A stretch of DNA of 64,000 nt from a virus. Lineage: Duplodnaviria; Heunggongvirae; Uroviricota; Caudoviricetes. Location: IMG/VR virus record IMGVR_UViG_3300033153_011579. The stretch is one strand, 5' to 3'. Each line of letters begins with the position of its first letter. Positions within the stretch are counted from its first letter, which is position 1. Positions 12,944 through 61,946 of the stretch are shown piece after piece. Position numbers and translations under genes: made by a program. Under the pieces are notes generated by a model. That model made no database searches. It saw only the letters and a program-made list of their open reading frames with translations, and was not told the origin of the DNA.

Positions 12944-12971
12944 GGCACGCAGTCGGGGGAAGGAGAAAAGA

Positions 12972-13412: not shown

Positions 13413-13437
13413 CACGTCCCCTGAAAGGAGAAGCCCG

Positions 13438-13713: not shown

Positions 13714-13774
13714 CACGTTCCCTAGGAACTTGAGCTTGTAAGAGAATCTCGCATTCTCTGACACGGAGGAAAAA

Positions 13775-13954: not shown

Positions 13955-13985
13955 GAGAATCCGCACGTTCTCTTACACGGAGGAA

Positions 13986-14189: not shown

Positions 14190-14223
14190 GAGAATACACA
14201 CGTCCTTTAACACGGAGGAAACG

Positions 14224-14460: not shown

Positions 14461-14492
14461 GAGAATCTTCCGTTCTCTGACACGGAGAAGAA

Positions 14493-24215: not shown

Positions 24216-24217
24216 CG

Positions 24218-24652
24218 CTACAGCCTTTCCACGACGGCCGCCATGAGGTCGATGACGGTGTCTCCGAGGTCGTCGATCTGAGTTTTGATCTTTTTGAATT
24301 TCTTTTTGAACGTGTTCGCCGAATCTTCGATGTAGCCGACCCGCGACTTGAGCCGATCGATTTTCTTCTCGATATTGCGGTCTCGCCTCTTGGAAGTCTC
24401 GTCGGCCCGCATGACCTGCTCTCGAAAATTCTGGTAGGCCGGACAGTCCGCCCAGCACTCCGGGCTCATTTTTTGCGATTGGGCCCGAGCTCTCGCTATG
24501 TCTTCGCCCGTCTTCTGTAGCGCCAGCTCGAGAGCGTGGTACCTCCCGAGCAGTACCGACTGCCACTGGAAGAGGAAGAACGACCGGTTCAGAGGCGGCA
24601 TTTTCTTCCACTCGTCGAGTTGGATCTCGGTCAGGTTGAGTTTGAAATCCAT
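24218..24652 (-). CDS. Coiled-coil protein (144 aa)
   Basis: ORF. Confidence 0.5.
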   Translation of the reverse strand: MDFKLNLTEIQLDEWKKMPPLNRSFFLFQWQSVLLGRYHALELALQKTGEDIARARAQSQKMSPECWADCPAYQNFREQVMRADETSKRRDRNIEKKIDRLKSRVGYIEDSANTFKKKFKKIKTQIDDLGDTVIDLMAAVVERL

Positions 24653-26062: not shown

Positions 26063-26266
26063 TCAATCCTCCCTCGTATATTTGTCTAAGAGCGCCTGCT
26101 GCTCCTTGGTGAGTTCTTCTCCGATCTGGGTCAGCATGACGACGTGCCAGAACTCGCACATCTCCCGCTGGGCGTCGTCGCACATTATTTGGAACTCGTC
26201 GGTGATCGTCTCGCCTTCTTCGAGCGGCGGCGCTTTGATCTCGACGGTCCAGGTGATCTCAGTCAC
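26063..26266 (-). CDS. Small acidic all-alpha protein, possible minimal MazG-like fold
   Basis: LEEGETITDEF…QREMCEFWHVVMLTQIGEELTKEQQALLDKY loosely matches the ExxE…ExxE helices of MazG; weak. Confidence 0.25.
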   Translation of the reverse strand: MTEITWTVEIKAPPLEEGETITDEFQIMCDDAQREMCEFWHVVMLTQIGEELTKEQQALLDKYTRED

Positions 26267-27368
26267 GGATCACCTCGACGATCCCTTTGGCAGTTGGTGA
26301 CAAGCTCGCGAGGACCGCATCGGCTCCGGTGACCTCCCTGATGTGCGCCAGGAACTTTGCGTCGTCGTCCATCTTCAAGATCTCGCCGCCGTCGAAGAAC
26401 CGAAAGTCGTCGTTGATGAGGTCGAGGCACGTGACGGCCAGCTCCGGGGTTTTCGTCATGATGTAGTCGTCTTTGTAGATGGCGTAGCTGAGCAGGTCGA
26501 GATCCAGGAGGGTCTTCCTAAATGTTCCCTGGGGGCCGTCGTCCGGGTTCTGCTCGTGTGGATTGTCCTTGATGTTGCAGGGGACGATGTCGCTCATCGG
26601 ACCTTTCCCATGCCGCGTCTGGTAAGCGCGGGTGACGAGCACGATCTCCGGCTCGTATCCCATCTCGCAAATATTTTTCGACCCGGTGTTCGTCGGAGTG
26701 ACGTATGGAAAAAAACCAAAATTCTGGTCGAGCAGCAGGCCTTGCGACCCTTCCCAGATAACCGTTTCGAACGAATCGATGACCTGCTCGTTCGACATCC
26801 CGATGGCCGCGTTGTGTGTCACCTCGTCGCACGCGACGAAGAAATTTTGGATGATGTAGTCGTCCGGTCTGAAGCCGTAGTATTGATAAAACTGCTCCAT
26901 CTTCATCCGCATTATTCTCGGGTGGAACAGGTCTTCGAACAGCAGGTGATGACCCTCCCGCTCTCTTTTGACGGTCGCGAAGATTCCGACCTCACAGCTG
27001 CCGCCGAAATCGGAATTCCGCTTATTCCACTCGATTTCAAACGGCGTGGTGACCGGGCACCTGTGGTCGACGAGGAGTCGTGGGAAGACTTTTTTCACCA
27101 GCAAGACGTCGAGCTCGTTCATGAGGGCGACGGGGTTGACCGAGCAGTATTTCGACCAGAAGGTCGGGACGCCTCGGAACGACCCGCTACCGAAATGAGA
27201 AAATACGTGAGACCTACCGTCCTCGAGCACCACCTGATGCGCGGCCTGGTGGCCGCCCGAGAACCGCACCACGAGCTCGGCCTTGTTGACGTCACAGAGG
27301 TAGTCGACCAGATGTCCTTTCCCCTCGTCCCCAAAGCCGAGCCCGATGACAGCGATGTGCTTGGTCAC
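26259..27368 (-). CDS. purZ?: Adenylosuccinate-synthetase-family enzyme (PurA homologue; candidate PurZ/PurZ0)
   Basis: N-terminal MTKHIAVIGLGFGDEGKGHLVDYL…VVRFSGGHQAAHQV matches the PurA P-loop and GGHNAGH signatures. It is 369 aa versus about 430 for bacterial PurA. Confidence 0.7.
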   Translation of the reverse strand: MTKHIAVIGLGFGDEGKGHLVDYLCDVNKAELVVRFSGGHQAAHQVVLEDGRSHVFSHFGSGSFRGVPTFWSKYCSVNPVALMNELDVLLVKKVFPRLLVDHRCPVTTPFEIEWNKRNSDFGGSCEVGIFATVKREREGHHLLFEDLFHPRIMRMKMEQFYQYYGFRPDDYIIQNFFVACDEVTHNAAIGMSNEQVIDSFETVIWEGSQGLLLDQNFGFFPYVTPTNTGSKNICEMGYEPEIVLVTRAYQTRHGKGPMSDIVPCNIKDNPHEQNPDDGPQGTFRKTLLDLDLLSYAIYKDDYIMTKTPELAVTCLDLINDDFRFFDGGEILKMDDDAKFLAHIREVTGADAVLASLSPTAKGIVEVIRD

Positions 27369-32839: not shown

Positions 32840-33718
32840 CTACCTCTTGGCCGGCGACACTACAGGAATCGAGCTCCCCTCGCCCGTGGCGATGACCTTG
32901 TCGCCGGGCCCGACGCGTTTATAAAGCGTCTTCTTGGCTTCGATCTCTCGCAGCGCAAGGTACTTGTCGGTGAGCGCGCCCCCCATGATCTTCACGTAGA
33001 CCGCCTCGGACTCCGCCTCGGCCGTCCTGACCGCCTTCATCTTCTCGGCGACCTTCAGCCGGTTGTCGGCCTGGAGCAGCTCCATCGCCTGCTTCGCCTT
33101 CTCCTCGTCGATCTCGATCTCTCGCCGGCGCTTCTTTTCGACGGCCTTGGTGATGACCTCCGGGTAGTCGAAGTTCGAGGTGACGACGCTCACGAGCTGC
33201 ATCGGCGTCCCCTTCAGCGAGGCGTGCAGCTGCTTGTGAATCTCTTTCTGGATCGCGTCCCGGTTTTCTCTGATCTGCGTCGTCGAGTATTTGCTCACGA
33301 TGCCACGCGCGATCGACCGAGCCTCGGGCTTCACGTACACGTTGTACAAGCTCTCGAACCCGAGTGCCGCCGCGTCGTACTCATCCCATCGCTCCATCTT
33401 CGACCCCTGGCGATTCAGGAGCTCCTTGATCGCAGATCCGTCTGCCGAGACCAGCCGCGTCCTCGTCACCAAATTGAACCTGAAGTTCAGGTCGTCCGAG
33501 CACAGGACGCTCATCTTCTCCTCGATGGCGTCCTCCTTCGTGTCGACCAGCTGCATCGAGTCGCGACCCCAGCACCCGTGGTGACCGGGTTGTAACACCT
33601 CGCCCGTCAGCCCTCCCGGGGTCTGTACCATCCCCACCCAGCCCGCAGGAACTACCTCGTTGCAACCGATGACCAAAAACGCCGCCAGGAACATTCCCAA
33701 AACACATGCTGATTTCAT
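32840..33718 (-). CDS. SPFH/Band-7 (stomatin/prohibitin-like) lipoprotein
   Basis: Lipobox LVIGC; SPFH region …KAVEKKRRREIEIDEEKAKQAMELLQADNRLKVAE…; start at 33718 (ATGA overlap, SD AGAGAGG). Confidence 0.6.
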   Translation of the reverse strand: MKSACVLGMFLAAFLVIGCNEVVPAGWVGMVQTPGGLTGEVLQPGHHGCWGRDSMQLVDTKEDAIEEKMSVLCSDDLNFRFNLVTRTRLVSADGSAIKELLNRQGSKMERWDEYDAAALGFESLYNVYVKPEARSIARGIVSKYSTTQIRENRDAIQKEIHKQLHASLKGTPMQLVSVVTSNFDYPEVITKAVEKKRRREIEIDEEKAKQAMELLQADNRLKVAEKMKAVRTAEAESEAVYVKIMGGALTDKYLALREIEAKKTLYKRVGPGDKVIATGEGSSIPVVSPAKR

Positions 33719-34077
33719 TGCCGAGCCTCTCTTTCTTCGGTGGTGAAGTCCACCTTGGAGCCACCGCGAACGCACGCGATGACTTGTTTGAGTTCTGCGA
33801 TCACAAACCGACCGAGACCGATCCTGTCGAGGTCGATGATGAGGGGCGGTGTCGTGTAGCCACGATCGTTGATCCTCACACGGAAGTTAACCCAGTCGCC
33901 GACCTTCACCCTGGTAAACCACCCGCGCACGGCGACCACCTCCCCGCGGAGGGTGTTTGTTTTCTCCGAGAATTTATCTCCGCAGTCGTCGGCGTGGATC
34001 CGCACGATCATCGACTTTCTCGGCATCGACGTGACGATGCCCTTGATGTCCTCCCTCTGAATTTCTCTATCGGCCAT
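33715..34077 (-). CDS. Putative OB-fold NfeD-like partner of the SPFH protein
   Basis: GEVVAVRGWFTRVKVGDWVNFRVRIND beta-rich segment; sits between a membrane protein and the SPFH gene. Confidence 0.35.
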   Translation of the reverse strand: MADREIQREDIKGIVTSMPRKSMIVRIHADDCGDKFSEKTNTLRGEVVAVRGWFTRVKVGDWVNFRVRINDRGYTTPPLIIDLDRIGLGRFVIAELKQVIACVRGGSKVDFTTEEREARQ

Positions 34078-49047: not shown

Positions 49048-49364
49048 CGAGCAAGCAAAAGATCATCGCGGGAGTCGCCGCGGGAGCCGCCGCCGCCCTG
49101 ATCACCGGTCTCGTCATCTGGCGCTCCCGGAAGAGGCTCGCGCTCGCCGCTCTTAAATACGAAGTCGATCCTTTATATAAGGCCCCCGCCGGCCTCAAGA
49201 CGCTGAAGCTCAGGAGCGTGCCGAAAGCCGCGGTGGTGGCCGTTAGAAAAATACACGGCAAGTTCAAGCTGCACCAGGCGTTCAGGGACACCGACGCCAT
49301 GTACTTGGTAGAAATCCACGAGGGGTTCGACCCGCTCGTGTTTCGAGTGAGGAGAAAGACATGA
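49044..49364 (+). CDS. N-terminally anchored small membrane protein (106 aa)
   Basis: IIAGVAAGAAAALITGLVIW TM; ATGA overlap. Confidence 0.5.
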   Translation: MTSKQKIIAGVAAGAAAALITGLVIWRSRKRLALAALKYEVDPLYKAPAGLKTLKLRSVPKAAVVAVRKIHGKFKLHQAFRDTDAMYLVEIHEGFDPLVFRVRRKT

Positions 49365-50419
49365 GAGGCAATCCCTACGATTGGATCAACCAGACTCGCG
49401 AGCACAAGGTGTTCGGAACTCGGCACTACCCGCTGATCGCCGGGCTCGCTGGGAAGTCCAACGGCTACCCGGCGTTCGCCATGCAGGTCCAGAGCCTGCC
49501 TGGTCTGCAGCGCAACCAGTACATCCGCGAGTGGCGGCAGTGGTTCGGGCGGCACGGCAAGAGCTGGGAGAAGATGGGCTGCCTCAAGGAAAACCGTCTC
49601 GGCCAGTACACCGACCGCTACAGGTGGACCGAGTGGAAGCCGGGCCTCGGTGCCTTCGGGTCGTTCGATACGAGCGTCGGGATGGGCTGGACCGCGATGG
49701 GGAACCCCGGCGCGAACTTCATCCCCAAGACGAACGTCATCCCGATCCCGGGGTACCCCGGCTGGGTACGCCAGATCGGCATGCTGAAGTACGACAAGGT
49801 CGGCGACGCGTGGCCCTGGTGTCTCGTGTACGCCAAGACCGACGGCTCGCAGTACGTCTGGTACTACAAGTACTCGGCGTCTCAGCCTCCGTTCCCCGGA
49901 GTCCCGCAGCCGACCGGCGGTGGCGACGACATCGGCACCGCGATCCCGAGCTCGACGAAGGCCGCGGTCACCGCGCTCCAGAAGGCGCTCAACCTCGCCG
50001 ACGCCAGGGACTCGCACAACAGGAAGCTGAACGAGGACGGCAACATCGGGCCCGACACGTGCTACGCGGCGTACCAGTTCAAGTCGGAGATGGGGCTCGG
50101 TACCGGAGCTGGGCTGCCCGCGGAGTTCTGGCTCTACCTCGGCCTGCCCGAGTCGTACGTCAAGTACAAGAACATCTGCTCGGCCTACTCGAGTGGAACG
50201 GAACCGAAAAAAACGACCAAACAACCGGGGCCGCTACCGGAGGAAGAGACTCCCGACCCGACGGTCAAGGCGGGCGACGCACCGCTCTCGATCTCGAAGG
50301 CGGGCCTCGGTGGCAAGAAGATGCTCCTGCTCGGCGGGGCCCTCCTGTTCGGGGGGCTCGTCGTGCTCGGTCGTAAGAAGAAGAAGCGCGGAAAACGCTC
50401 CAAGAAGAGGAGAAAATAA
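49361..50419 (+). CDS. Putative cell-wall hydrolase with a peptidoglycan-binding domain and C-terminal TM plus poly-basic tail
   Basis: PG_binding_1-like TAIPSSTKAAVTALQKALNLADARDSHNRKLNEDGNIGPDTCYAAYQFKSEMGL; C-terminus LLLGGALLFGGLVVLGRKKKKRGKRSKKRRK. Confidence 0.5.
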   Translation: MRGNPYDWINQTREHKVFGTRHYPLIAGLAGKSNGYPAFAMQVQSLPGLQRNQYIREWRQWFGRHGKSWEKMGCLKENRLGQYTDRYRWTEWKPGLGAFGSFDTSVGMGWTAMGNPGANFIPKTNVIPIPGYPGWVRQIGMLKYDKVGDAWPWCLVYAKTDGSQYVWYYKYSASQPPFPGVPQPTGGGDDIGTAIPSSTKAAVTALQKALNLADARDSHNRKLNEDGNIGPDTCYAAYQFKSEMGLGTGAGLPAEFWLYLGLPESYVKYKNICSAYSSGTEPKKTTKQPGPLPEEETPDPTVKAGDAPLSISKAGLGGKKMLLLGGALLFGGLVVLGRKKKKRGKRSKKRRK

Positions 50420-50988
50420 TGCCGTCCAAGAAGAGCAAGAAGAAGCGCGGGAAGAAAAAAGGGAGTCCGCTCCCACTCGTGATCGCCGCGGCGGCCATCG
50501 GTCTCGCCCTCTTCTTCGTGAGCAAGAAGGGGTCCGCCGGAGTGCCCAAGGACATCCCCAAGGGGAAGGGTCCCGGGAAGGCACCTCCCGCAGGAGCGCC
50601 GGCCAGCGCGCGCCCAGCTCCCGAGCTCACCGCGGCTCCGGACCCCGTGCCGACGGGAGAAGCGATCGACGACGCGCCGGCACCGACCAGTTCCGGCGAC
50701 ACCGGGCCGAGCGACCCGCTGAAGGCGGCCGGCTGGAAATGGGGCTTCATGGGATCTGTCGACCCCGACGAGGCATGGTCCGTCGGCGAGGTCATCAGCC
50801 CTTCACAGCTGCCGTTTGGTGCGGACAACCTGATCCAGGTGAGCCCGCTCGACACGGTCGAGGTGGCCTACTACCTCGCGTCGCAGGAGATGCTGACGCC
50901 TGGCTACTACGTGGTCGGGCAGATCAACTCGGAGGGCTTCTCCTTCGAGCCGCCCTTCTGGGGCATCATCCACGTCTGGCAGGAGTAG
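50419..50988 (+). CDS. Membrane-anchored Pro/Ala-rich protein (189 aa)
   Basis: N-terminal KKKRGKKKG plus TM. Confidence 0.5.
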   Translation: MPSKKSKKKRGKKKGSPLPLVIAAAAIGLALFFVSKKGSAGVPKDIPKGKGPGKAPPAGAPASARPAPELTAAPDPVPTGEAIDDAPAPTSSGDTGPSDPLKAAGWKWGFMGSVDPDEAWSVGEVISPSQLPFGADNLIQVSPLDTVEVAYYLASQEMLTPGYYVVGQINSEGFSFEPPFWGIIHVWQE

Positions 50989-50994
50989 GGAAAG

Positions 50995-51648
50995 ATGCCG
51001 TCGCCGCACAGCTATTACAGCTACCTGAAGATCTACAACGGGTCTGTGGGAGAATCGCCGCGCAAGGGGGCTTTTTACATCCCCAAGCATGGCGAGGCAC
51101 TCACGAGGATCGCCAAGCAGGCGTACGGGTTCGTGACCAGTACGCTCGCCGGCGTCCAGATGATCAACAGATCAGCATGGAATCGCAATGCGGCGAAGCA
51201 GGGTGCGTTCAAGTATCGCGTGACGTCGACTTCTTGCAAGTCGAAGATGGCCAACCCGGACAACGCGCTCACTACCCAGGGCTACAACAAGGGGGCCTGG
51301 CTCGCGCTGTGCCCGCCTTACCCGCTGTTCTGGATCCCGGCGAAGGCGGGCCAGATGCCGGAAGACCTCGCGCCTCCGGACGCCCCCCCCGGTCCCCCCG
51401 GAGCGACCTTCAAGGCACCGCCGAAGTCGCGTGGTGGAAGAGTGACGACGAAGAAGAGAGCCGGGGTCAAGACCACCAGGCAATCGCCCGGTCCGGGGAC
51501 GCAGTCGCCCTACTACCAGGGCCAGGGGACGTCGGGCTCGAGGAAGACGGCTCTCGCCGGCGTCGGGTCGCCGTGGATGCTGCTCGCCCTCGCGTTGCTC
51601 GCAGCCGGAGGATACGTATGGTACAGGCGGCGGAACAAGAAGAAGTAG
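50995..51648 (+). CDS. Protein with C-terminal TM and basic tail (217 aa)
   Basis: …WMLLALALLAAGGYVWYRRRNKKK. Confidence 0.5.
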   Translation: MPSPHSYYSYLKIYNGSVGESPRKGAFYIPKHGEALTRIAKQAYGFVTSTLAGVQMINRSAWNRNAAKQGAFKYRVTSTSCKSKMANPDNALTTQGYNKGAWLALCPPYPLFWIPAKAGQMPEDLAPPDAPPGPPGATFKAPPKSRGGRVTTKKRAGVKTTRQSPGPGTQSPYYQGQGTSGSRKTALAGVGSPWMLLALALLAAGGYVWYRRRNKKK

Positions 51649-51753: not shown

Positions 51754-53571
51754 ATGGGTAACGAAAAGGGGCAGGAGCCCAAAACCCCTTCGAAGAGGAA
51801 GATGAACGACCGGAGGGTGACGCAGGCCCAGGTCGGCGTCGAGCAGCCGACCGACCGCGACGAGGGTTGGGACGTCTCGAAATTCCGGCAGATCATCTTT
51901 TCGATGCACCCGGTCGACCCGGACATCGACGACGTGGGTGCCGTCGGCTGGATCGCGTACGTCAAGGTCTGGCGCTTCAAGCTCGCCAACCGCTGGGGTA
52001 CCGGCAGCTCGGGAGGACAGTGGTACGCCGAGGACGAGCTCATCATCTCGATGGACGGCGATGTCGCGAACGGCGGCCCGATGGAGTACCAGCTGCCGAC
52101 GTGGAACGCCGAGAAGATGTTCTTCCAAGTGGTGCTCTCCGAGGGCGGTCCCGATACGTGGCAAGCCGCGCAGACCATCTCCGGGCTCGTCCCGCAGTCG
52201 TGCGAGTGCGAAGCGGACGTCGGCAGTATCGGTGGCGGCGGTGGGTCCGGTGGAATCGTCGTCTCGAACCTGTTCGATCTGATGGCCCACAACGACTACA
52301 CGTACAGCTCGCTTCGTGGCGATTTCGTCGCCACCAGGATTGCCGCGAACTCCATCCTGGTCAGCGGGCTCGACTTCGCGGTCGAAGAGCGGCAGATCCT
52401 GGCGATCGGCCTCAAGCGCTCGGGGACAACGTCCAGAACGCGCATGTGGTATCGCGACGACACCCTGCGTGTCGACTACACGCCAGGAACCTCGCTCATC
52501 GTGCACGCTGGCTTCACCAGCGACGCCCTGGACGAGGTGATCGTCTTCCTCGAGGGACCGTCCAAGGTGGACGACCCCACGAACCGAGCTCGACGCAACA
52601 AGACCGTCAACCCCGACCCGAAGCATGTCGCGACCGACGGGATTTTTCTCGACATCACGAAAGCCGAGCAGGCCGACGACGATTATTTCCCGTTCATGAT
52701 GAACCAGGACGGCTACCACTGGCTGTCGACGATGATCACCCTGACCGAGGACACCGTCGTGACGCTCGAGGCGACAAACGACCTCGCAGCGGACGGTGCC
52801 GAGGAATGGTACGACGTCACCGAGGAGGTGCTCGGCGTCGCCTCGGTCACCACGGCGAACGACGACCAGGCCTTCCCACCGCAGTGCTGGGTCGGCTGGC
52901 GACGGATGCGCTGGGTGGTCGGTGAGACCGGCTCTGGCGGTACCTGCAAGCTCTACATGCTGAGATCGGCCTATGGCAACCACTGGGTGCCCGTCGCCCG
53001 TGAGGGCCTCCCAGCGCTCCATGGCGGCCTCCCGGTGATGGGCGAAGCTCGAGCTGTCCAGGCCCCGGCCATCGCCGCGCTGTCCGCTGGGAAGTTCGTC
53101 ACGAACCTCTTCAAGGAGCTCGTCGGAGCAGCCTTCGACTGGGCCGTCGGAGCAGACCGCGGAGAAGAGGTCGACCCCGTCGACACGCGGGACTACACGA
53201 ACGTCATGGCCGAAGTCACCGGCCAAGGGGATGGTGATTTTTACTACTACCTCGACATGGCCCACTTCACAAAAGTGGGCATCCAGATCGAGAACGTCGA
53301 TGGAATAGCCGGCGACAACACCTACACGATCCATGGCTCGGAGCAGGACGACGGTACTGCACCGAACGCCGTTATCTACCAGGACATCACGCAGTTCGGG
53401 TGTGACAACATGAGAGCAGCCAACGCCGCGAACTACACGGCGGACGTCCTGTTGCAACTGAACGCCGCCGGGCTCTCGTACAAGTGGATCATGGTTCATG
53501 TCGAGCGCGCCAATGATGGCGCAAACACCGACGGCGAGTGGACCATCCTCGCCCGTCCGCTCTACCACTAG
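51754..53571 (+). CDS. Large putative spike/receptor-binding protein (605 aa)
   Basis: Largest late ORF, Gly-rich linker SIGGGGGSGGIV, beta-rich; no NTPase motif. Confidence 0.6.
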   Translation: MGNEKGQEPKTPSKRKMNDRRVTQAQVGVEQPTDRDEGWDVSKFRQIIFSMHPVDPDIDDVGAVGWIAYVKVWRFKLANRWGTGSSGGQWYAEDELIISMDGDVANGGPMEYQLPTWNAEKMFFQVVLSEGGPDTWQAAQTISGLVPQSCECEADVGSIGGGGGSGGIVVSNLFDLMAHNDYTYSSLRGDFVATRIAANSILVSGLDFAVEERQILAIGLKRSGTTSRTRMWYRDDTLRVDYTPGTSLIVHAGFTSDALDEVIVFLEGPSKVDDPTNRARRNKTVNPDPKHVATDGIFLDITKAEQADDDYFPFMMNQDGYHWLSTMITLTEDTVVTLEATNDLAADGAEEWYDVTEEVLGVASVTTANDDQAFPPQCWVGWRRMRWVVGETGSGGTCKLYMLRSAYGNHWVPVAREGLPALHGGLPVMGEARAVQAPAIAALSAGKFVTNLFKELVGAAFDWAVGADRGEEVDPVDTRDYTNVMAEVTGQGDGDFYYYLDMAHFTKVGIQIENVDGIAGDNTYTIHGSEQDDGTAPNAVIYQDITQFGCDNMRAANAANYTADVLLQLNAAGLSYKWIMVHVERANDGANTDGEWTILARPLYH

Positions 53572-53582: not shown

Positions 53583-53858
53583 GTGGGAATAGACATCAAA
53601 GCAGAACTCAGCAAGCTGGCGCTCGCCAACCTGGTCGATATTCCGCAATCTTCCGGAAAACCCCCAGGGGTGCCGGACATCACCAAAGCCAAGGCGCTCG
53701 CCGTTCTCAACAAGCTCCGCGAGATCGCCAAGCACAACGGCTACCGTGGGATCGCCAAGGCCGAAAAAATCCCCGAAAAATGGGTCAGGAAGCTCGACCT
53801 GCTGCGCAAGGAAGTCATCGCCGAGAAGCAACCCAAAGAGATCGAGGATCTCGAATAG
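53583..53858 (+). CDS. Hypothetical protein (91 aa, GTG start)
   Basis: SD GGAGA 7 nt upstream of GTG. Confidence 0.45.
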   Translation: MGIDIKAELSKLALANLVDIPQSSGKPPGVPDITKAKALAVLNKLREIAKHNGYRGIAKAEKIPEKWVRKLDLLRKEVIAEKQPKEIEDLE

Positions 53859-54467
53859 ATGCCCGCGTACTTCCACATCATCGACCCTAACGGCCACATC
53901 GTACGGATCGATGCGTCGACCCACGCCCAAACCACGATCGAGTACGAGCACCACGAAATCCATGGCTCCAGCTCGTTCACCTGCTGGTACGAGCAAGAGG
54001 TCTCGGACGATGGCGACCAATCGATCATCGCCTTCAAGACTCCCGCTGGAGCCAAGTGGGGCCACCTCACGTTTGCCGCCTCAGCCTCGCAGCCGGCGGA
54101 GGCCTGGATCCTCGAAGCCCCCGACGTCGTCGACAACACAGGAGCGCCGCTCGCAATCTGGAACAGAAACCGGGCCATCATCCTACCCAGCATAATGATC
54201 GACACCTCCCAGAACCCGGACGTCGTCGACCAGGCCACCTTCTTCACCGAGGTGACGATGGGTAACGTCACGGCTGGCGACGAGATCGACCACCAGCACC
54301 TCGAAGCGGGTCGGGGACCCCGTGCGATCGGCGGAGTATCCCGAGGCTCTCAGGAGTGGATACTCAAGCCCGAGGTCCACTATGCATTCATCGTCGAGTC
54401 CCTGAACGACGACACCAACGTCCACAACCTCCAGGTCAACTGGTACGAGCATACGGATAGAAACTGA
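53859..54467 (+). CDS. Hypothetical beta-rich protein (202 aa)
   Basis: ORF. Confidence 0.55.
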   Translation: MPAYFHIIDPNGHIVRIDASTHAQTTIEYEHHEIHGSSSFTCWYEQEVSDDGDQSIIAFKTPAGAKWGHLTFAASASQPAEAWILEAPDVVDNTGAPLAIWNRNRAIILPSIMIDTSQNPDVVDQATFFTEVTMGNVTAGDEIDHQHLEAGRGPRAIGGVSRGSQEWILKPEVHYAFIVESLNDDTNVHNLQVNWYEHTDRN

Positions 54468-55105
54468 TGAGCCGCCTTCTCCCACACGACGTTACCGCCG
54501 AAGACAGAATGCGCCGCTGTTTTTTTGGTACGCGGTTCCGTCGGCCGGGAGATGAAGTCGAGAAACAGGGTGTGATCAGCGGTGCGCCTGTTATCAATCG
54601 AGGTGCGACGTTCGATGGCGTGAACGACTACATCACCTACGGGTTGTGGGGGCAGTTCACCGATAAGGACCCCGTCTCGTTTCACTGCTTGTTCTACCCC
54701 AATATAGTCCCATCCGGCGCAATGACTGAGTTTCCGTTTTTTGATACGCCCGATGCTTCGTTGAACTACGCTTGCAGGTTGACAACGACTGGCACATTCC
54801 AGTTTCGTGTCGGCAACGTATCACTCATCAACATAGCTGTCGGGGTGTACTCCGCGCTGTGGAATAATGGCGGCCGAAACTTGGTGACACTGTCCTCAAC
54901 TAGCGGGGCGAGTGACATCATGTTCAACGGAACCGTGCTCGCTGCGGCTGTTGATACAGCTTGGACCCCGACGGTTGTCACTTCATTGGCCATTGGTCGG
55001 AGATCGGGTGCGCGATTCAACGGACGTATGGAGTCTCTCCACCTCTTCAACAGTCTCCTCAGCGAAGAAGACCACCAGGCGATCTGGGCTGGGGGAGGTG
55101 CCTGA
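54467..55105 (+). CDS. ConA/LamG-like domain protein, paralogue 1
   Basis: C-terminal NGRMESLHLFNSLLSEEDHQAIW typical of the LamG C-terminus. Confidence 0.5.
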   Translation: MSRLLPHDVTAEDRMRRCFFGTRFRRPGDEVEKQGVISGAPVINRGATFDGVNDYITYGLWGQFTDKDPVSFHCLFYPNIVPSGAMTEFPFFDTPDASLNYACRLTTTGTFQFRVGNVSLINIAVGVYSALWNNGGRNLVTLSSTSGASDIMFNGTVLAAAVDTAWTPTVVTSLAIGRRSGARFNGRMESLHLFNSLLSEEDHQAIWAGGGA

Positions 55106-55794
55106 TGGGCCTCTATAACTGGCGCAACAAGCTCCTCCTGGACCTGCCGATGTTGATGCGGGACCACGACCCCGGCAACACCCTGTCGGTCAACAGAGGG
55201 CGTGCGGGAGCGGCCCTCGATGCAACATGGACCGCTGGAGTCACTGCACCGACGAAGCTCGGATACCGGAGGGGGTACTCGTTCGATGGTGCCGACATTA
55301 TGTTGGTTGCGGATGATGCGTCAATCCGATTCGGTACTGGTGATTTCACTGTATTATCAACTTTTGGCACTACGCAGAGTGCGAATCCTGCCAGGACTAT
55401 CGTAGCGAAAGGCACTGTCGGCGTTGATGAGTGGTTGTTTTATCGCTTTGCCGCTGGAGGTATTCAAAGTATTAGATTTTACGGTGACGGTGGTGCACTC
55501 AACGTAACAGCTGTTTGGACTGGGCGGCATCAGGGCGTCAACACAGGCGTGTTTGTGCGTAGCGGTGATGACGGGTTTCTCTACATCGGAGGGCAGCAAG
55601 TAGCGACACAAGCAGGCATCGCAGCGGTTGATCTGAGCACGACAAAAGATGCTTCAATTGGATCTGCTAATGAGGGTGGTGAACGTTACTGGGTCGACGA
55701 CATCTACCACGTCGGCATGGCCAACTTCGCGCTGAGCCCCCATCAGGTCGCCCAGTACCACAGCACGATGATGCGGAGGCTCCATGCGCTTTGA
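55105..55794 (+). CDS. ConA/LamG-like domain protein, paralogue 2
   Basis: …DDIYHVGMANFALSPHQVAQYH; TGATG overlap. Confidence 0.5.
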   Translation: MGLYNWRNKLLLDLPMLMRDHDPGNTLSVNRGRAGAALDATWTAGVTAPTKLGYRRGYSFDGADIMLVADDASIRFGTGDFTVLSTFGTTQSANPARTIVAKGTVGVDEWLFYRFAAGGIQSIRFYGDGGALNVTAVWTGRHQGVNTGVFVRSGDDGFLYIGGQQVATQAGIAAVDLSTTKDASIGSANEGGERYWVDDIYHVGMANFALSPHQVAQYHSTMMRRLHAL

Positions 55795-55875
55795 CTTGCA
55801 AAGTAGTAGCGACATGAGGAGCTACCGGTCAGTCCCCGCAGGGGACAAGACTATCGGAACACCCGAGGTGTTACG

Positions 55876-56532
55876 ATGAGCTTCCTCCAGCAGTCGATCC
55901 GGGACCAGTCACTCGTCGAGTGGGTCGACCTGCGTCGTTGGAACGCCAACTTCAACGACCTCTCCGGTCAAGGGGCCGTCGGGACGCCCTCCGACGTCTG
56001 GTACGGTGGTGGTGGAGTGCAGTTCGCCAACGACGACGGCTACATCAGCGTGCCTGACGTCGCCGCACACCGAAACGACGCCCTGTCGATCGTAGTCGTC
56101 GGTGAGTTCGACAGGCTCGAGCGTCCCGCCGCCAACCCAGGATTCCTGCTCACCAGGATGGACGGCGGTGGAAACATCGAGTGGCAGTTCGGGATCGACG
56201 ACACTCCGCAACTGTTCTTCGTCGATACCAACGCGTCGGCGACAGTCACAAGAGCAGTCGACTACCGCGGCATGCGCTCGCTTGGGCTGACCACCACGAA
56301 TGGCGGTACGCCGATTGGTTACGGTCAAGGGCTCTCGCTCGGTAATTTCTCCGGTGCGGCAGACGTCGATGCAAACGTCGATATGCTGCTGTACCTCGGG
56401 AACAACGACGACTTCGACCGGTCGATGCTCAACCCCATGCACGCCGCCCTGCTCTTCAATCGACCTCTCGACGAAGAAGAGATGGCCGTCCTCCACGGCG
56501 AGCTCATGGCGCTCCCCGGAGGTGAGCACTGA
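55876..56532 (+). CDS. ConA/LamG-like domain protein, paralogue 3
   Basis: …LFNRPLDEEEMAVLHGEL. Confidence 0.5.
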   Translation: MSFLQQSIRDQSLVEWVDLRRWNANFNDLSGQGAVGTPSDVWYGGGGVQFANDDGYISVPDVAAHRNDALSIVVVGEFDRLERPAANPGFLLTRMDGGGNIEWQFGIDDTPQLFFVDTNASATVTRAVDYRGMRSLGLTTTNGGTPIGYGQGLSLGNFSGAADVDANVDMLLYLGNNDDFDRSMLNPMHAALLFNRPLDEEEMAVLHGELMALPGGEH

Positions 56533-57872
56533 TGCCGCGTGCATACGCCACACGACGAGTTCTCCTCGTGCCCGACCTCGCCGACCCCGCCCTCTACGGA
56601 GCGTGGACCATGGTGCCACGAGGTGGCCTCCTTGTTGACCACACTCCCCAAGGGAACGACGGCGTCCCAGGCGCGTCTTCCGGAGTCGAGCACACAATCC
56701 TCGGCCCGATGCGGAGGTATTGGCCGAATAGCGGAGCTGGCGGGTCCGTGATCGGTGCTCCTGGAGACTTCGCTCTGGGCGATCTGACATGCTGCTTTTG
56801 GACGCGGATGGATATTGGAGCTGCGCCTGATGCCTATGGGTTTGGCTACCGATTGAACAACAACGATCAGTGGTGGCTTCGCGTTCGTGCTGGGTTGGTC
56901 TCTATTTTCGACGACATCGATAATGCTGGAGCAAATCTGTACCAGACACTGGTTCAGGCGGGCAGGCTGGTTCACGTTGTTGGTGTGATGGATAATCTTG
57001 AAAATCTTCTGTACCTTGACAACGTCTTGGTGGGCTCGGGCACCTTTGCCTCTGACAACTGGGCGAGTTTTGCTGGGCAGTTGTATCACGGTGCGAGGAC
57101 CACTGGCGCTGATCCAGTTCAAGGCATCGTCTCACCCGCTCTCGTCCACAACGCAGCCAAGGACCAGGCCTGGGTCACCAAGGACTACATGAAGGGCGCT
57201 TCGGCCGTCCAGTTCAAAACCGACTGGGGCGTCAAACAGAGCGTCGGGAACGAAGTCGCCAACGCTCGCGTCGGCCACAATAGCTCGCCCTTCGAGATCG
57301 TCAGCGGTACCTGGCAGATGACCATGGACACCATCGACGGTGTCGACGTCAAGGTGATGGAGTGTATCGCTGCTGGAGTGGTCGGGATGCCGACCTCGCT
57401 GTTCGAGGCGACCCCAACCGAGGCGGCATTTGGGACGTGGGAGTGGTGGTTGACCAAGGTCGACGGCAGTTCACCTTATGTGATGTTCGCTGGATCTGAC
57501 CTTGCTGCTATAGCCGGTGGGACACAGAGCGGATACGACATTATTATCAACTCTGCCGAGCGTGTCTTTTTTCAAGAGTGTGCTGCTGGTGCTCCGGTAA
57601 GCTCTTGGTGGACTGACATCGATTATGTGACACCCGGATCATGGAACAAGTTCAGAGTCACTAGGAGATATGACGGCCAGTTCACCGTATACATGGATGA
57701 CGTTTTAATCAACGCGACTGGCGGTGTGGAGTCTAACCCCTTCACCGATCTGACCACCACGACAGCCAACTACGTCGTGCTCGAATTCGACGCCGGAGAT
57801 AAATTTGGGTATGCCGACCGTCGCGGCTCACACAGTTTCGTAAAATACCTCGGGGTCATCCCCCCAGGGTAG
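56532..57872 (+). CDS. ConA/LamG-like domain protein, paralogue 4 (446 aa)
   Basis: Jelly-roll-like composition, tandem with paralogues. Confidence 0.5.
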   Translation: MPRAYATRRVLLVPDLADPALYGAWTMVPRGGLLVDHTPQGNDGVPGASSGVEHTILGPMRRYWPNSGAGGSVIGAPGDFALGDLTCCFWTRMDIGAAPDAYGFGYRLNNNDQWWLRVRAGLVSIFDDIDNAGANLYQTLVQAGRLVHVVGVMDNLENLLYLDNVLVGSGTFASDNWASFAGQLYHGARTTGADPVQGIVSPALVHNAAKDQAWVTKDYMKGASAVQFKTDWGVKQSVGNEVANARVGHNSSPFEIVSGTWQMTMDTIDGVDVKVMECIAAGVVGMPTSLFEATPTEAAFGTWEWWLTKVDGSSPYVMFAGSDLAAIAGGTQSGYDIIINSAERVFFQECAAGAPVSSWWTDIDYVTPGSWNKFRVTRRYDGQFTVYMDDVLINATGGVESNPFTDLTTTTANYVVLEFDAGDKFGYADRRGSHSFVKYLGVIPPG

Positions 57873-57884
57873 GAGGATAGAAGG

Positions 57885-58640
57885 ATGGGCAACCAGTATT
57901 ACGGACGATCGTGGAACGAGCTGATGGAGCTCTGCACGGCCGAGTATCGGTTCTACCGAAACTCGCAGCGGAACTTCCGCCCGGCGAACATCGGTGCGGG
58001 AACCGGTGTCGCCGACATGGGCGAGTACCTGATCGACGCCGACAACGTGCCCAAGCAGTCGGTGTGTCTCGGGATGCCGGCCTTCTGTGTCGACTACCCC
58101 ACGGCCCACTTCAACTTCCCCCAGAACTTCGACGATACGATGGGGGCCGAGGACGCCTTTACCCTGGAGTACCTCGGTGTCGTCCAGGACCGCCTGATAC
58201 CAGATAGGTACATGGCCCTGGTCGGCGAAGATGGCGCGGCGACTCCCTACGTCGGGATCCGCGATGACAACCTGGTCGAGATGGATTTCGGCACGCAGCA
58301 GGTCTCGAACGGTCTCTGCGAGTGGTGGAAAGACGGTCTGATCCACTTCGTCGTCTCTCGGGCGGCTGGTGCAGCGCCCGAAACGGAAATTTACATCAAC
58401 GGAGTGCGGATCGACTTCGTCAGTCGTCTGGCTGGCGCGGGGGCCTTCACCGACGCCGCCGGCCAGATCTTCAACCACGCCGACAACAACGGAGACCAGC
58501 ACCCGTGGTGGGGTCACCACTTCATGCTCCGGCAATATTCGGCGGCGTTGAGGAAGTCCGAGGTCATCGAGATGTTCCAGGACGCGCAGCGCCTGATCCC
58601 GCATCACCTGATGCACATCCCGGTCGACTCGGCGGAGTAA
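57885..58640 (+). CDS. ConA/LamG-like domain protein, paralogue 5
   Basis: …RQYSAALRKSEVIEMFQDAQRLIP. Confidence 0.5.
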   Translation: MGNQYYGRSWNELMELCTAEYRFYRNSQRNFRPANIGAGTGVADMGEYLIDADNVPKQSVCLGMPAFCVDYPTAHFNFPQNFDDTMGAEDAFTLEYLGVVQDRLIPDRYMALVGEDGAATPYVGIRDDNLVEMDFGTQQVSNGLCEWWKDGLIHFVVSRAAGAAPETEIYINGVRIDFVSRLAGAGAFTDAAGQIFNHADNNGDQHPWWGHHFMLRQYSAALRKSEVIEMFQDAQRLIPHHLMHIPVDSAE

Positions 58641-58663: not shown

Positions 58664-59158
58664 GTGGGAGACAGCGACACACTGATCGAGATCGCCAAGA
58701 GCCTGGGAGAGGTCAATGGCTCGATGGCCGGCGTCCATCGCGAGATGAAAGGTGTTCGTGGAGAGGTTCGAGAGCTGCGGGACGAGGTCAAGGAGATGCC
58801 CGACCAGTGGAGGGCGGAAGCTGCGGACATCGTCGAAAACTGCAGAGAGCGACGGGACGAGCTCGCCGAGGCGAAAGAGCGTGGGGAGTCCACCGCGGTC
58901 ACAAACCTCGCCAAGGAACAGGCAAGATCTCGGAGGCCGTCCACGCCTCCCCGGAAGCGCGACAGTTGGATCGACAGCGTCGTCAAGACGGCGATGAAGC
59001 CGGTCATCACTACGCTGGTGGTGGTCTGCATGGCCGCCGGCGCGGGGTTCGCCGTGTCCCACTGTAGCAACGGCAAAACGGTCGAGCCGGCTGATCTGAA
59101 GGCGCTCGAGGATAATTTGCTCGAGCGGTTCAAGAAGGTGAACGGAGGCGAGCGATGA
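58664..59158 (+). CDS. Coiled-coil protein with C-terminal TM (GTG start)
   Basis: SD GGTAGGAGGATAAC-GTG. Confidence 0.5.
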   Translation: MGDSDTLIEIAKSLGEVNGSMAGVHREMKGVRGEVRELRDEVKEMPDQWRAEAADIVENCRERRDELAEAKERGESTAVTNLAKEQARSRRPSTPPRKRDSWIDSVVKTAMKPVITTLVVVCMAAGAGFAVSHCSNGKTVEPADLKALEDNLLERFKKVNGGER

Positions 59159-59682
59159 GTAACCTCGACCCAGCTCTGTGCAAGTGGGAGCTGGTCAAGA
59201 AGTGGGACTATCAAGACGTCACCATGGAGCGGGCCTTTGCAGAAGGCGGCGGCCTGGTGGTCGGTGGCAAGCTCCGGGGCCACGCTGCTTCGGGATTCGT
59301 CCTGAGCGACCTCGGCGTCCCCTCTGAGCTGATCGACGAGATGGCCGATAAGTTCGGGAAGACGTGGGAGGTCCTCCTGTTCGTGACGTCTCCCCATCCG
59401 GTGGGTGCCGGGAACTTCACGCTTGCCGAAGAGGTGTATGCCCTGTGGGCCTACAAGGCGACCTGGCCGCCGCCGATGCACTCGTCGCTGGACTACGTCC
59501 CCGACGCGGTGCTGAGGAACGCGCGGCTGTTCAAGCTGCAGTGCCCGACGGAGGCCGCGCCCTGGCTCCAGAAGAAGAAAGAGCATTCGATGAAGCCCCG
59601 GAGCTCTATCTGGGTTCCCGTAATTGGCGGTTTTTGCCTGGTGGGAACCTGGTTGCTCGCGCGAAAAAGGAAGAAGCGGTGA
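59155..59682 (+). CDS. Protein with C-terminal TM and basic tail (175 aa)
   Basis: …IWVPVIGGFCLVGTWLLARKRKKR. Confidence 0.5.
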   Translation: MSNLDPALCKWELVKKWDYQDVTMERAFAEGGGLVVGGKLRGHAASGFVLSDLGVPSELIDEMADKFGKTWEVLLFVTSPHPVGAGNFTLAEEVYALWAYKATWPPPMHSSLDYVPDAVLRNARLFKLQCPTEAAPWLQKKKEHSMKPRSSIWVPVIGGFCLVGTWLLARKRKKR

Positions 59683-59712: not shown

Positions 59713-61014
59713 GTGGGTGACTGGGACAAAAAGTGCCGCGATCCTAAAACTGCAAAACTGGCTAGCCAGTGTGCGCGGCGTGGGTACCTGTCCGATAACA
59801 TAGGCGGCCTAGGCCGCTTCGGGACGGTGAAGACGTACGCCGCGCCAGAGCGAGGGCCTCTGGAGCGCGTGAAGTCCGCTGAGAACATGGGGCCGACCCG
59901 GTCTCAGCTGTTCACATGGACGACGAAGGTCCACGCGCCGAGCTGGAGCTTGCCCGCGGTTGGCACCTGTCCGGGGGCGTGTGGAGTCGACAAGAAGTCC
60001 ATCAGAGACACGAAGAAAATACCGAAAAAATGCCTCGGGTGCTACGCGTACAACGCGGGGAAGTACGGGACCGAAGAGGTGAAGAACGCTCAGCACCGGC
60101 GGTGGGCGTGGTTCGATTCTCAGCCCAAGAAGGAAGTCGTCAAGGGGTTGGTCGAGGCGATCAAGGTCTCCGGGCGAGACGATTGCACGACCAGCCGCGC
60201 GAAGAAGTCCGACCCGTGGACGTGCAAGAAGGACGAGGGCGGCCGGAAGGTATGCGCTCGCGAGGATCCGGTGACGTGCAAGACGACGGTGAGCGGGCTG
60301 CCGACACACTTCCGACTATTCGACTCGGGAGATTTCCACGACGCGAGAGCGGTATGGATCTGGCGGAGCGTCGCGAGAAAACTCCCGGACATCAAGTTCT
60401 GGGCTCCGACGACCGCGTGGATCGACCACAAGTACGAGCATCCCGAGGACAAGCAGAAGGAGGTCGACCTCCACCTCGAGCTCGGCCGGCTCGCGAAGAT
60501 GAAGAACGTTACTCTGCGGCCGAGCGCGTTGAGTCTCGACCGCGCAGCTCCCGACGTCGAGATCGGCGGCCGGAAGGTCGCGGGGAGCGGGATCGTCTCG
60601 TGGGAGGCGATGAAGACGACGGCCAAATGTCCGTGGGAGGACAAGCCGACGAAAAACAAGTGCAAGCGCACGTACCGGCACCTGCCGCAGGCGAAGACGC
60701 TGTCGGGCAAACCGGTCATTTACGACCCGGACGACGATTCGACCAGGCCGGAGAAGGTAAAGGTCAACGGGAAGGTCCACCGGCTCTGTCCGGGTGACTG
60801 TGCGAAGTGCATGGCGTGCTGGAACAAGCGAGAGCGGGTGGTGTACGTGCAGCACGGTCCTGACGCGAAGGCGAAGGAAAGGATGCTCGAGCGGGGCGAG
60901 GACATGCTCGAGTACATGGAATTGCTGTTCCCGCAATACGCGGACCTCGGGCCGGACAGTGCGGACCACCCGGCGCAACGGTTTTTGGCGGCACAGCGAA
61001 AGAAGGCCCACTAG
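59713..61014 (+). CDS. Cys-rich basic protein (433 aa, GTG start inside a CCCACTGGTGGG element)
   Basis: SD ATAGGAGG; multiple CxxC pairs; the stop TAG lies inside the CCCACTAGTGGG palindrome. Confidence 0.55.
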   Translation: MGDWDKKCRDPKTAKLASQCARRGYLSDNIGGLGRFGTVKTYAAPERGPLERVKSAENMGPTRSQLFTWTTKVHAPSWSLPAVGTCPGACGVDKKSIRDTKKIPKKCLGCYAYNAGKYGTEEVKNAQHRRWAWFDSQPKKEVVKGLVEAIKVSGRDDCTTSRAKKSDPWTCKKDEGGRKVCAREDPVTCKTTVSGLPTHFRLFDSGDFHDARAVWIWRSVARKLPDIKFWAPTTAWIDHKYEHPEDKQKEVDLHLELGRLAKMKNVTLRPSALSLDRAAPDVEIGGRKVAGSGIVSWEAMKTTAKCPWEDKPTKNKCKRTYRHLPQAKTLSGKPVIYDPDDDSTRPEKVKVNGKVHRLCPGDCAKCMACWNKRERVVYVQHGPDAKAKERMLERGEDMLEYMELLFPQYADLGPDSADHPAQRFLAAQRKKAH

Positions 61015-61039: not shown

Positions 61040-61303
61040 GTGGCCAAACGAAGACCATGCAAAGGAGTAAGCGTCCGGCACGAGTTCAGCGGGCCGGTCG
61101 TCAGCAAAGGATATTCCACGGCGGAGGTAAGGTTCAAGAATGTAGGAAGGGACTTCCGAAACGAATTCGAGATCAAGTGCAAATATACCGACCCCAAGTC
61201 AAAAGTGAAAAAGTTAGTTGAGCGCATCAAGGTAGATGCGCAGCAAGAGGCAACCGACCGCGCCTGTGCACTGGTCAAGAGTCGTTGTAAGCGGAAGAAA
61301 TAA
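61040..61303 (+). CDS. Small basic protein (87 aa, GTG start inside a CACTAGTG element)
   Basis: SD AAAGGAGGG. Confidence 0.5.
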   Translation: MAKRRPCKGVSVRHEFSGPVVSKGYSTAEVRFKNVGRDFRNEFEIKCKYTDPKSKVKKLVERIKVDAQQEATDRACALVKSRCKRKK

Positions 61304-61304
61304 G

Positions 61305-61946
61305 ATGCCCAAGAGTCCAGGACCAGCGACGTTGTTCATGCTGCTGACGGGTGGAGCTTTGCTCCTGGCCGGCGCGGTCCGCGCATTCTCCGGTGAGCAA
61401 AAAAGCCCACTAGTGGGCCCGAGGTATGTGGTGGCGGTGGGCGACTCTCTGACGGCGAACGGGTCGTATTGTCGGACGCTCGAGCGGATGCTTCCTGTCG
61501 GGTCGAGGGTGGACTGCGTCGGGTACGTTGGCGAGGGGGCGCAGGCGATCTCCACGAAGGTAGGGAAGGCGATCCTCGCCGGAGCAGACGACGTGATCGT
61601 GTTGGCCGGCGTGAACGACCTGGCGTCGGGTCGCGGGGTGCAGGGGACGGTCTCCGGGCTCGACAAGATTTACCAGAAGGGGAGGGCATCGGGCGCGCGG
61701 GTGATCGCAGTCCACCTGACTCCGTGGGCGGGGCATTCGAAAGGGTCGCAGCTACAGACCGAGACGTGGAAGGTGAACGCGTGGATGGCGAAATACCCAT
61801 CGGTCGAGATGGTGGTCGAGACGCAGGAGCTCGGTGATGCCGGCGTCCTCTACCCGGAGTACGGAGCTGGCGACGGGTTACATCTGAGCGAGGCGGGCCA
61901 GGACAAGCTGGCGGAGATCATCTTTAGCCAGGTGTACGGAGGATAG
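61305..61946 (+). CDS. SGNH/GDSL-family hydrolase with N-terminal signal/TM
   Basis: Blocks VAVGDSLT, GVNDL, DGLHLSEAG. Confidence 0.6.
   Translation: MPKSPGPATLFMLLTGGALLLAGAVRAFSGEQKSPLVGPRYVVAVGDSLTANGSYCRTLERMLPVGSRVDCVGYVGEGAQAISTKVGKAILAGADDVIVLAGVNDLASGRGVQGTVSGLDKIYQKGRASGARVIAVHLTPWAGHSKGSQLQTETWKVNAWMAKYPSVEMVVETQELGDAGVLYPEYGAGDGLHLSEAGQDKLAEIIFSQVYGG

Follow-up and report, generated by a model that had tools for sequence, protein, structure and literature searches.

The window, the whole stretch of 64,000 nucleotides that was analysed, belongs to an uncultured phage of ~82 kb. Its positions 54467-58640 were fully occupied by five consecutive genes on the + strand, here called A to E (212, 229, 218, 446 and 251 aa), and the independent gene calls made by JGI for the same contig gave the same five products. 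These genes and those directly upstream of them are laid out as follows:

51754-53571, + strand: S, 605 aa, acidic (net charge -40), co-inherited with the LamG genes
53583-53858, + strand: small gene, 91 aa with the JGI start, 34% identical to its counterpart in sister contig L004
53859-54467, + strand: T, 202 aa, acidic; its stop codon overlaps the start of A (TGATG)
54467-55105, + strand: A, 212 aa, with a single LamG_3-like domain at about residues 51-202
55105-55794, + strand: B, 229 aa, with a LamG_3 domain spanning roughly residues 74-216; its start overlaps the stop of A (TGATG)
55876-56532, + strand: C, 218 aa, divergent LamG_3; 81 nt separate it from B, and its stop codon overlaps the start of D
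56532-57872, + strand: D, 446 aa, with two domains, Dn and Dc
56532-57206, + strand: Dn, the N-terminal domain of D, LamG_3
57207-57872, + strand: Dc, the C-terminal domain of D (residues 226-446), likely to be another LamG-like jelly roll, in degenerate form
57885-58640, + strand: E, 251 aa, an N-terminal extension of ~55 residues followed by a LamG/ConA-type jelly roll

Each of the genes A-E was preceded by a GGAGG-type ribosome-binding site, the start of B being an ATG within a longer open reading frame that begins with TTG. Stop and start codons overlapped as TGATG at three junctions (T/A, A/B and C/D), and the spacer between D and E was 12 nt. Terminator-like sites were not found on the + strand between the array genes; the two pattern matches on this strand were located inside the coding sequences of D and E. 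From the sequence, S, T and A-E are proposed to form one operon-like late unit of the phage, with co-transcription of its genes. Upstream the operon is flanked by membrane proteins with C-terminal transmembrane anchors (352 and 217 aa), and downstream in the window by a transmembrane coiled-coil protein (164 aa), a tail-anchored protein of 175 aa and a GDSL lipase.

All five array genes are Laminin_G_3/ConA-like, by homology or by fold, and this part of the original prediction was borne out by Pfam, hhalign, HMM links and a structural model of E. Against the Pfam profile PF13385 (Laminin_G_3; gathering threshold 27.6 bits), residues 76-215 of D scored 40.2 bits, in concordance with the Pfam annotation precomputed by JGI, and B scored 30.2 bits, while A was marginal with 26.2 bits (E 1e-5), slightly under the threshold. 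The Pfam scan gave no direct PF13385 match for C and E, which were connected to the family via profiles or orthologues. A was also matched by a LamG HMM built in this analysis (E 8e-7) and tied by BLAST to the C orthologue of L001 (4.6e-5). With hhalign, C was linked to B (95.8%, E 8e-9) and to Dn (89%, E 2e-6), and a distant orthologue of C (L001:8736-9371) reached 60.3 bits on PF13385. The hhalign signal came with deeper family alignments, shallow alignments of E and C giving none. For Dc, PF13385 was matched by one of five family members (2e-4) and the LamG HMM matched the orthologue in L004 (1.2e-6); its profile had no match among PDB sequences. Dc is probably a second, weaker LamG-like domain of D. 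When all six-frame open reading frames of the window were searched with the LamG HMM, only A-E were picked and the best decoy had an E value of 0.68, although this HMM leans towards E because the E profile was used to collect its member sequences. The matches of A, C and Dc are individually weak, and the fold assignment of A-D rests on sequence profiles.

The C-terminal motifs quoted in the original prediction do lie where the LamG_3 profile ends: the Pfam matches reach positions 149-151 of 151, and a C-terminal '..N..LS..E...L' strand-helix motif is common to the array and PF13385. In pairwise alignment, one of its suggested checks, BLASTP among A-E found no significant similarity, and the domains were 9-19% identical to each other when aligned with the HMM.

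Structure prediction, the other check, was made for E, the hardest case and the only array protein modelled, and an unrelated fold did not appear. The AF2 model, constructed from an alignment of 20 sequences, had a pLDDT of 87.2 and a pTM of 0.88 and is predicted to be a two-sheet beta-sandwich with the jelly roll of a lectin. It superposed on viral ConA-like proteins in BFVD with E values down to 4e-10, and its top structural matches were non-catalytic binding modules. The closest solved folds included the tailspike subunit gp15 of cyanopodophage Pan3 (PDB 9vyh, 269 aa), which is alike in fold with a sequence identity of 8-10%; a PDB sequence search found no homology between the two at the sequence level, nor any other PDB match to the E profile. 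The lectin-like Hc-N domain of clostridial neurotoxins, the sialic-acid-binding CBM40 modules and domain 4 of AbnA also rank among the nearest known systems, although they have no sequence relationship to the array and belong to another biological setting. The E family consisted of 12 members. When its HMM was run against 1.84 billion proteins, the non-family matches listed were nearly all large proteins that aligned to residues ~150-233 of E. All six of these that were scanned with Pfam were strong Laminin_G_3 repeat proteins, and in the two comparable cases (P0025 and P0028) the best Pfam stretch overlapped the coordinates matched by the E profile. A distant relative of E, P0056, had PF13385 at 4e-4. 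E belongs to a LamG subfamily missed by Pfam.

S had no transmembrane segment and no sequence match in Pfam, PHROGs or PDB. Its orthologues in the sister contigs L004, L006 and L007 were 32-52% identical; its C-terminal ~180 aa were kept in L001, L009, L013 and L015, and in L011 they formed a separate gene of 199 aa. Orthologues of T were present in L004 and L006, and a gene of T-like size stood at the T position in L001, L007 and L009, matched by position and size only. T had a weak match to phrog_5335 (E 0.007) in PHROGs, and its profile had none among PDB sequences. No trimerisation, coiled-coil or beta-helix features typical of fibres or spikes were detected. None of S, T and A-E had a predicted transmembrane segment or, judged by eye, a signal-peptide-like N-terminus, which is in line with virion proteins synthesised in the cytoplasm.

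The three sister contigs, two of 81-82.5 kb and one of 26 kb, carried gene-by-gene orthologues of the array, except that A and B were missing from L006. They likewise had a small gene at the position of the 91-aa gene. One of the sister contigs was binned with a Planctomycetota MAG. Across the sister genomes the identity was 51-55% for D, 43-58% for E, 37-48% for C and 36-48% for A and B. C, D and E were conserved as well as or better than the neighbouring genes, with D and E among the best conserved of the region, and A and B were the least conserved of the array. The array had been taken for a set of diversified tandem paralogues, and for this we found poor support: A-E are ancient, distinct orthologous groups and, as far as the sequences tell, not recent or hypervariable paralogues. 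Diversification of the DGR type was rejected since no template/variable pair was present in the window and no direct repeat of at least 35 nt involved positions 54467-58640. Only A and B appear to behave like a variable slot. In L006 their place is occupied by an unrelated pair of genes (446 and 90 aa). The 446-aa gene was considered as a fusion of A and B and rejected, having no similarity to either, and as a beta-helix tailspike it had no Pfam support; the profile of its product had no match among PDB sequences.

In the more distant contigs the same pieces were partitioned differently. A and B formed a single chain of 443 aa in L001, B matching its C-terminal half, and C, Dn and Dc were joined in a single protein of 599 aa in L009, 687 aa in L011 and 644 aa in L013. 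In L015, C and Dn were fused and Dc was separate. Of all parts of the module, Dc had the broadest conservation, with 30-45% identity to L001, L008, L009, L013, L014 and L015. The proteins S, A/B, C, D and E were the sole ones common to the window lineage and L001, L008, L009 and L011. Judging from these comparisons, the gene set is transferred as a module between otherwise unrelated phage genomes.

We hold it to be somewhat probable that S, T and A-E constitute a hetero-oligomeric adsorption apparatus of the virion made of lectin-like modules, which might be of distal-tail, fibre or baseplate type. Each chain would contribute one LamG/ConA jelly roll and D two. A and B would act as one working unit and C and D as a second, with E, S and T as further conserved subunits. 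The LamG domains would bind a polysaccharide of the host surface without cleaving it, A/B serving as the exchangeable, host-specific part and C, D and E as a conserved scaffold or a part for secondary binding. Incorporation into the virion, a tail rather than a head site, contacts between the subunits and binding of glycans are what we infer. The joint conservation of the genes and their occasional fusion in unrelated phages suggest that they probably encode one multi-protein device for host attachment. A multi-protein complex had been named in the original prediction as the alternative, and it turned out to be the better supported choice in view of the TGATG overlaps at T/A, A/B and C/D and the A+B and C+D fusions.

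Many phages and giant viruses have proteins annotated with a 'LamG-like jellyroll fold'. Environmental LamG_3 proteins typically carry many repeats in one long chain, whereas here the domains are divided among five short genes, each with orthologues of its own. In multi-RBP or branched receptor-binding systems, such as those of CBA120 (TSP1-4) and the dual-RBP Klebsiella phages, several adjacent receptor-binding genes border the structural module and single members are exchanged modularly, features that the array may share. Those systems consist mostly of trimeric beta-helix depolymerases with alternative specificities, whereas the array consists of mutually distinct LamG chains; a fixed set, fused in fixed pairs, suggests that the chains are obligate subunits of one assembly. 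Exchange of the receptor-binding type is hinted at by the replacement of A/B in L006 and by the occurrence of the set in unrelated genomes, yet C, D and E are locally well conserved. ConA-like domains have been reported in phage tail fibres, namely in those of Acinetobacter siphophages (PMC11058221), which in this respect are like the array. The type of protein is thus known and the arrangement is modestly new.

LamG/ConA-like domains are common and poorly understood in environmental phages, where the usual annotation is just 'LamG-like jellyroll'. The locus gives a testable picture of a fixed set of five distinct LamG chains with two partners, the pairings A-B and C-D, for which the fusions are clear evidence, and one apparent exchangeable slot. 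If assembly into the virion is confirmed, it would represent a lectin-based adsorption apparatus of a phage lineage without a cultured member. Profile seeds would then be available for the E family and for Dc, both of which the current Pfam and PHROG libraries miss, and the annotation of receptor-binding genes in metagenomic viruses would be aided. No existing concept is overturned by the locus. A more far-reaching version, possible but in our view doubtful, is that S and T, the pairs A·B and C·D, and E make up a self-contained, horizontally moving adsorption organelle which unrelated uncultured phage lineages exchange whole and re-partition by fusion and fission. Such an organelle would consist nearly entirely of LamG jelly rolls, with six LamG-like domains on five chains and two proteins of unknown fold, and would be a type of fibre or baseplate that has no cultured or solved counterpart.

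The gene neighbourhood in relatives was counted in favour of the adsorption apparatus. The module of L001 and L009 starts one or two genes past an HK97-type major capsid gene (Phage_capsid_4), and in L001 a portal-like gene is located upstream of it and a PHROG 'virion structural protein' (phrog_3287) downstream. No hallmark gene of a head or tail was identified in the window; a capsid or portal gene was not found with HMM, jackhmmer or hhalign searches started from the capsids of L001 and L009 and the portal of L001, and the profiles of the 681-aa and 314-aa open reading frames had no match among PDB sequences. The synteny with head genes is therefore established in distant relatives only.

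Proximity to the capsid gene could mean that A-E are decoration or head-fibre lectins on the capsid surface, as Hoc is a decoration protein displayed on the head, and that they adhere to polysaccharide or mucus-like matrices from the head instead of the tail. A precedent is gp76 of phiCbK, a protein with a ConA-like domain encoded near head genes and proposed as a head filament (PMC3556154). We regard this placement as unlikely: decoration systems normally have one or two proteins as against the seven co-inherited here, the fusions and the A/B swap in L006 resemble the mosaicism of tail-fibre and receptor-binding genes, a tailspike subunit is among the closest solved folds of the E model, and gene orders of the podovirus type also put tail genes straight after the capsid gene.

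The membrane-anchored proteins on both sides of the operon and the GDSL lipase downstream could in turn point to a role outside the virion, directed at the envelope. The operon products would then be soluble intracellular or envelope-directed proteins that bind or alter glycans of the host envelope in the course of infection, for instance by being released at lysis or by working together with the membrane proteins on either side. The lack of a head or tail hallmark in the window agrees with this. It too has a low probability, since S, T and A-E carry neither a predicted transmembrane segment nor, by eye, an obvious signal peptide, the module lies between capsid and other virion genes in L001 and L009, and virion adsorption genes are typically transferred together as a module and fused in this way.

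In the sister genomes, nearby genes for glycosyltransferases and sulfotransferases suggest a glycan-centred biology, but it is very unlikely that one or more of A-E, instead of being passive lectins, are ConA-like depolymerases of glucanase or lyase type that degrade capsule or EPS, as the top structural matches of the E model are non-catalytic, the matched Pfam family is Laminin_G_3 instead of a hydrolase or lyase, and a GH16-type enzyme was rejected because the ExDxxE motif is not conserved, the lone EFDRLE in C not being conserved in its orthologues.

PHROGs gave no informative match for the window genes, and DNA and protein searches with the operon, D and the 681-aa open reading frame found no match among 50,697 phage records. 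The D alignment likewise had no prophage relative in 185,579 reference genomes. The D orthologue of L001, when compared with the phage records, had only a weak LamG match, to a spindle-shaped virus of Nitrosopumilaceae.

Five consecutive genes (A–E) make up the complete gene content of the interval 54467–58640, and are preceded by three further genes that belong to the same layout:

51754–53571, S, 605 aa, upstream of A–E
between S and T, gene of 91 aa
53859–54467, T, 202 aa, directly 5' of A
54467–55105 (+), A, 212 aa
55105–55794 (+), B, 229 aa, ATG start within a longer TTG ORF
55876–56532 (+), C, 218 aa
56532–57872 (+), D, 446 aa
57885–58640 (+), E, 251 aa

All five array genes have a GGAGG-type ribosome-binding site, and the JGI gene calls, made on another copy of the contig, gave the same A–E products. 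The T/A, A/B and C/D junctions are stop/start overlaps (TGATG), while the spacers are 12 nt (D/E) and 81 nt (B/C). A pattern search found no terminator-like sites between the array genes on the + strand, the only two matches lying within the D and E coding sequences. Because of these junctions and the lack of terminator-like sites, S through E looks like one operon.

In comparison to Pfam Laminin_G_3 (PF13385; gathering threshold 27.6 bits), B (30.2 bits) and residues 76–215 of D (40.2 bits) exceeded the threshold and A fell just under it (26.2 bits, E-value 1e-5). C gave no match, and neither did E, even at E ≤ 10 across six members of its family. The original prediction regarded the five as tandem paralogues; BLASTP found no significant pairwise similarity among them, but profiles of family alignments, built from orthologues in related contigs, do link them. 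The comparison joined B with C (95.8% probability, 8e-9), C with the N-terminal domain of D, Dn (89%, 2e-6), Dn with E (50%, 1.6e-4), B with E (41%, 2.8e-4) and A with C (35%, 4e-4), the controls S and T giving E-values ≥ 0.02. The Dn–E and B–E matches were collinear across the C-terminal halves. A distant C orthologue in the viral contig L001 matched PF13385 with 60.3 bits and the window's A in BLAST (4.6e-5).

Our own LamG HMM of 233 domains, which is skewed towards E since the E profile supplied its sequences, was run on all six-frame ORFs of the window and matched only A–E (8e-13 for E, 3e-9 for D, 8e-7 for A, 3e-5 for B and 0.15 for C; top decoy 0.68). C orthologues scored from 1e-15 to 4e-4. 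Judged from sequence, D probably has a second LamG-like domain, in degenerate form, in its C-terminal half (Dc): the orthologue in contig L004 matched the HMM (1.2e-6), and one of five family members matched PF13385 (2e-4). The HMM-aligned identity among the six LamG-like domains was 9–19%.

Pfam and PHROGs detected neither the E family nor the Dc domain. A search of 1.84 billion representative proteins with a six-sequence E profile gave some 20 full-length relatives, followed by large proteins matched almost all at E residues ~150–233. All six of the large proteins scanned with Pfam were strong Laminin_G_3 repeat proteins, and the best Pfam stretch overlapped the E-profile match in both comparable cases, P0025 (Pfam 287–450, E profile 303–465) and P0028. 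A distant E relative, P0056, had a PF13385 match of its own (4e-4). The AlphaFold2 model of E reached pLDDT 87.2 and pTM 0.88 with a 20-sequence alignment (pLDDT 36.9 from six sequences only). In a BFVD fold search nearly every named top match was a viral protein of the ConA-like or LamG-jellyroll kind, and Foldseek against the PDB agreed, so that structure prediction supports a LamG/ConA-like fold for E. The predicted ConA/LamG likeness was thus borne out by Pfam for B, D and marginally A, by orthologue and profile links for C, and by profile and model for E.

The operon had no match among cultured or deposited phages, and no relative was found among reference genomes. The sister contigs are L004/L005 (81,271 bp; the NCBI bin is a Planctomycetota MAG), L006 (82,527 bp) and L007, with the common order ~600 aa, ~90, ~190, A, B, C, D, E, ~160, with a GDSL lipase farther downstream. 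Identities of their orthologues to the window genes were 51–55% (D), 43–58% (E), 32–52% (S), 37–48% (C), 36–48% (A) and 36% (B), and for many flanking genes no orthologue was detected in these contigs. L006 keeps S, T, C, D and E, and at 6402–8027 (JGI Ga0452209_000517) has an unrelated pair, 446 aa (G/A/N/T-rich) and 90 aa, instead of A and B, apparently through exchange of a cassette at the A/B slot. In more distant viral contigs, nothing but S, A/B, C, D and E is shared with the window, and the pieces are partitioned differently:

Gene order in distant viral contigs (sizes in aa)
L001: portal-like 704 (phrog_332), 244, 151, capsid 295 (Phage_capsid_4), 254, S 357, 190 at the position of T, 80, A+B fusion 443, C 211, D 454, 384, 534 (phrog_3287, virion structural protein), 773, 946
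L009: capsid 331, 332, S 604, 135, 83, C+Dn+Dc fusion 599
L013: C+Dn+Dc fusion 644, then a protein with the S C-terminal domain
L015: C+Dn fused, Dc a separate gene
L008: Dc joined to a different N-terminal domain
L011 (58 kb): 1115 with the S middle domain, E-like protein, S C-terminal domain as a gene of 199, 1450 ending in Dc, C+LamG+Dc protein 687

Each of A–E has its own orthologues, and the window contains no DGR-like repeat. A–E are ancient, distinct LamG lineages rather than an array that diversified recently. The stop/start overlaps, by which the module genes would be translationally coupled, the A·B and C·D fusions, the co-inheritance with S and T, and the movement of the set between otherwise unrelated phage backbones point to A–E, S and T as obligate subunits of one assembly. 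A virion assembly is suggested by the place of the module, right behind the capsid gene in L001 and L009, by the lack of predicted transmembrane segments and of signal-peptide-like N-termini (judged by eye) in the module proteins, including A–E, and by the solved folds that come closest, one of which is a phage tailspike subunit. A capsid-decoration role is possible by analogy with that proposed for phiCbK gp76 (PMC3556154). A non-virion role may be suggested by the membrane-anchored proteins flanking the operon and by the searches of the window having found no head or tail genes of its own phage, but the location directly 3' of the capsid gene in L001 and L009 speaks against it. For the virion assembly, we lean slightly towards putative lectin-like binding of host polysaccharide, in which A/B would be the exchangeable part that sets specificity and the conserved core would consist of C, D and E; such binding is favoured because the closest folds are binding modules, not enzymes, and no conserved GH16 motif was found.

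The kind of protein is not new, since ConA/LamG domains are already known in virion proteins and fibres of phages (PMC11058221; BFVD annotations; PDB 9vyh). To our knowledge and in the libraries searched, the arrangement is new: a lineage without a cultured member has a conserved module of seven genes in which five LamG chains are separate, the fusion partners are defined and one slot can be swapped.

The flanks of the operon (49361–51648 and 58664–59682) encode proteins of 352, 217 and 175 aa with a C-terminal transmembrane anchor and polybasic tail, the first with a peptidoglycan-binding-like motif (by eye), and a 164-aa coiled-coil protein with a transmembrane segment; they are possibly a module for lysis or for the envelope. 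Downstream follow a GP88-family protein (PF17338, 3e-15; 59713–61014, +) and a GDSL/SGNH lipase (61236–61946, +) that has a hydrophobic segment at its N-terminus; the lipase keeps its place behind the cassette in every sister contig. In relatives, glycosyltransferase (GT11, GT2), sulfotransferase and methyltransferase genes lie ~10 kb or less from the LamG cassette (L004/L005 16.7–19.8 kb, L006 19.3–20.7 kb, L011 0.5–3.6 kb), a hint that the biology of these phages is related to glycans.

Elsewhere in the window, a ~40-nt inverted repeat, TGTAAGAGAAT-N6-ATTCTCTGACACGGAGGA-N3-6-ATG, recurs between genes at 1,100–14,500 (+) in 25 copies or more (e.g. 1733–1782, 2018–2067, 7679–7728, 9346–9395 and 13738–13787). 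Almost all small genes there have it immediately before their Shine-Dalgarno and start codon, where it could act as a promoter or operator specific to the phage or, as an RNA hairpin, control each cistron. The early region also has a 300-nt direct repeat of 92% identity (2746–3045 and 5953–6252). At 26259–27368 (−) lies a 369-aa adenylosuccinate-synthetase homologue (PF00709 1e-39, profile positions 1–274 of 416 only), for which the best sequence matches in the PDB are bacterial PurA. It may be either a truncated PurA or a PurZ of the phage (2-aminoadenine DNA). An Lcl_C-domain protein (PF07603; 16484–17191, −) includes a tandem repeat of 12-nt period and GTGTCGGTATCG type (16889–17125), read as coding an Asp/Thr-rich linker on the − strand; near it are a response-regulator receiver protein (17597–18598), a DUF5131 protein (23469–24611) and an SPFH/Band-7 protein (32840–33775).
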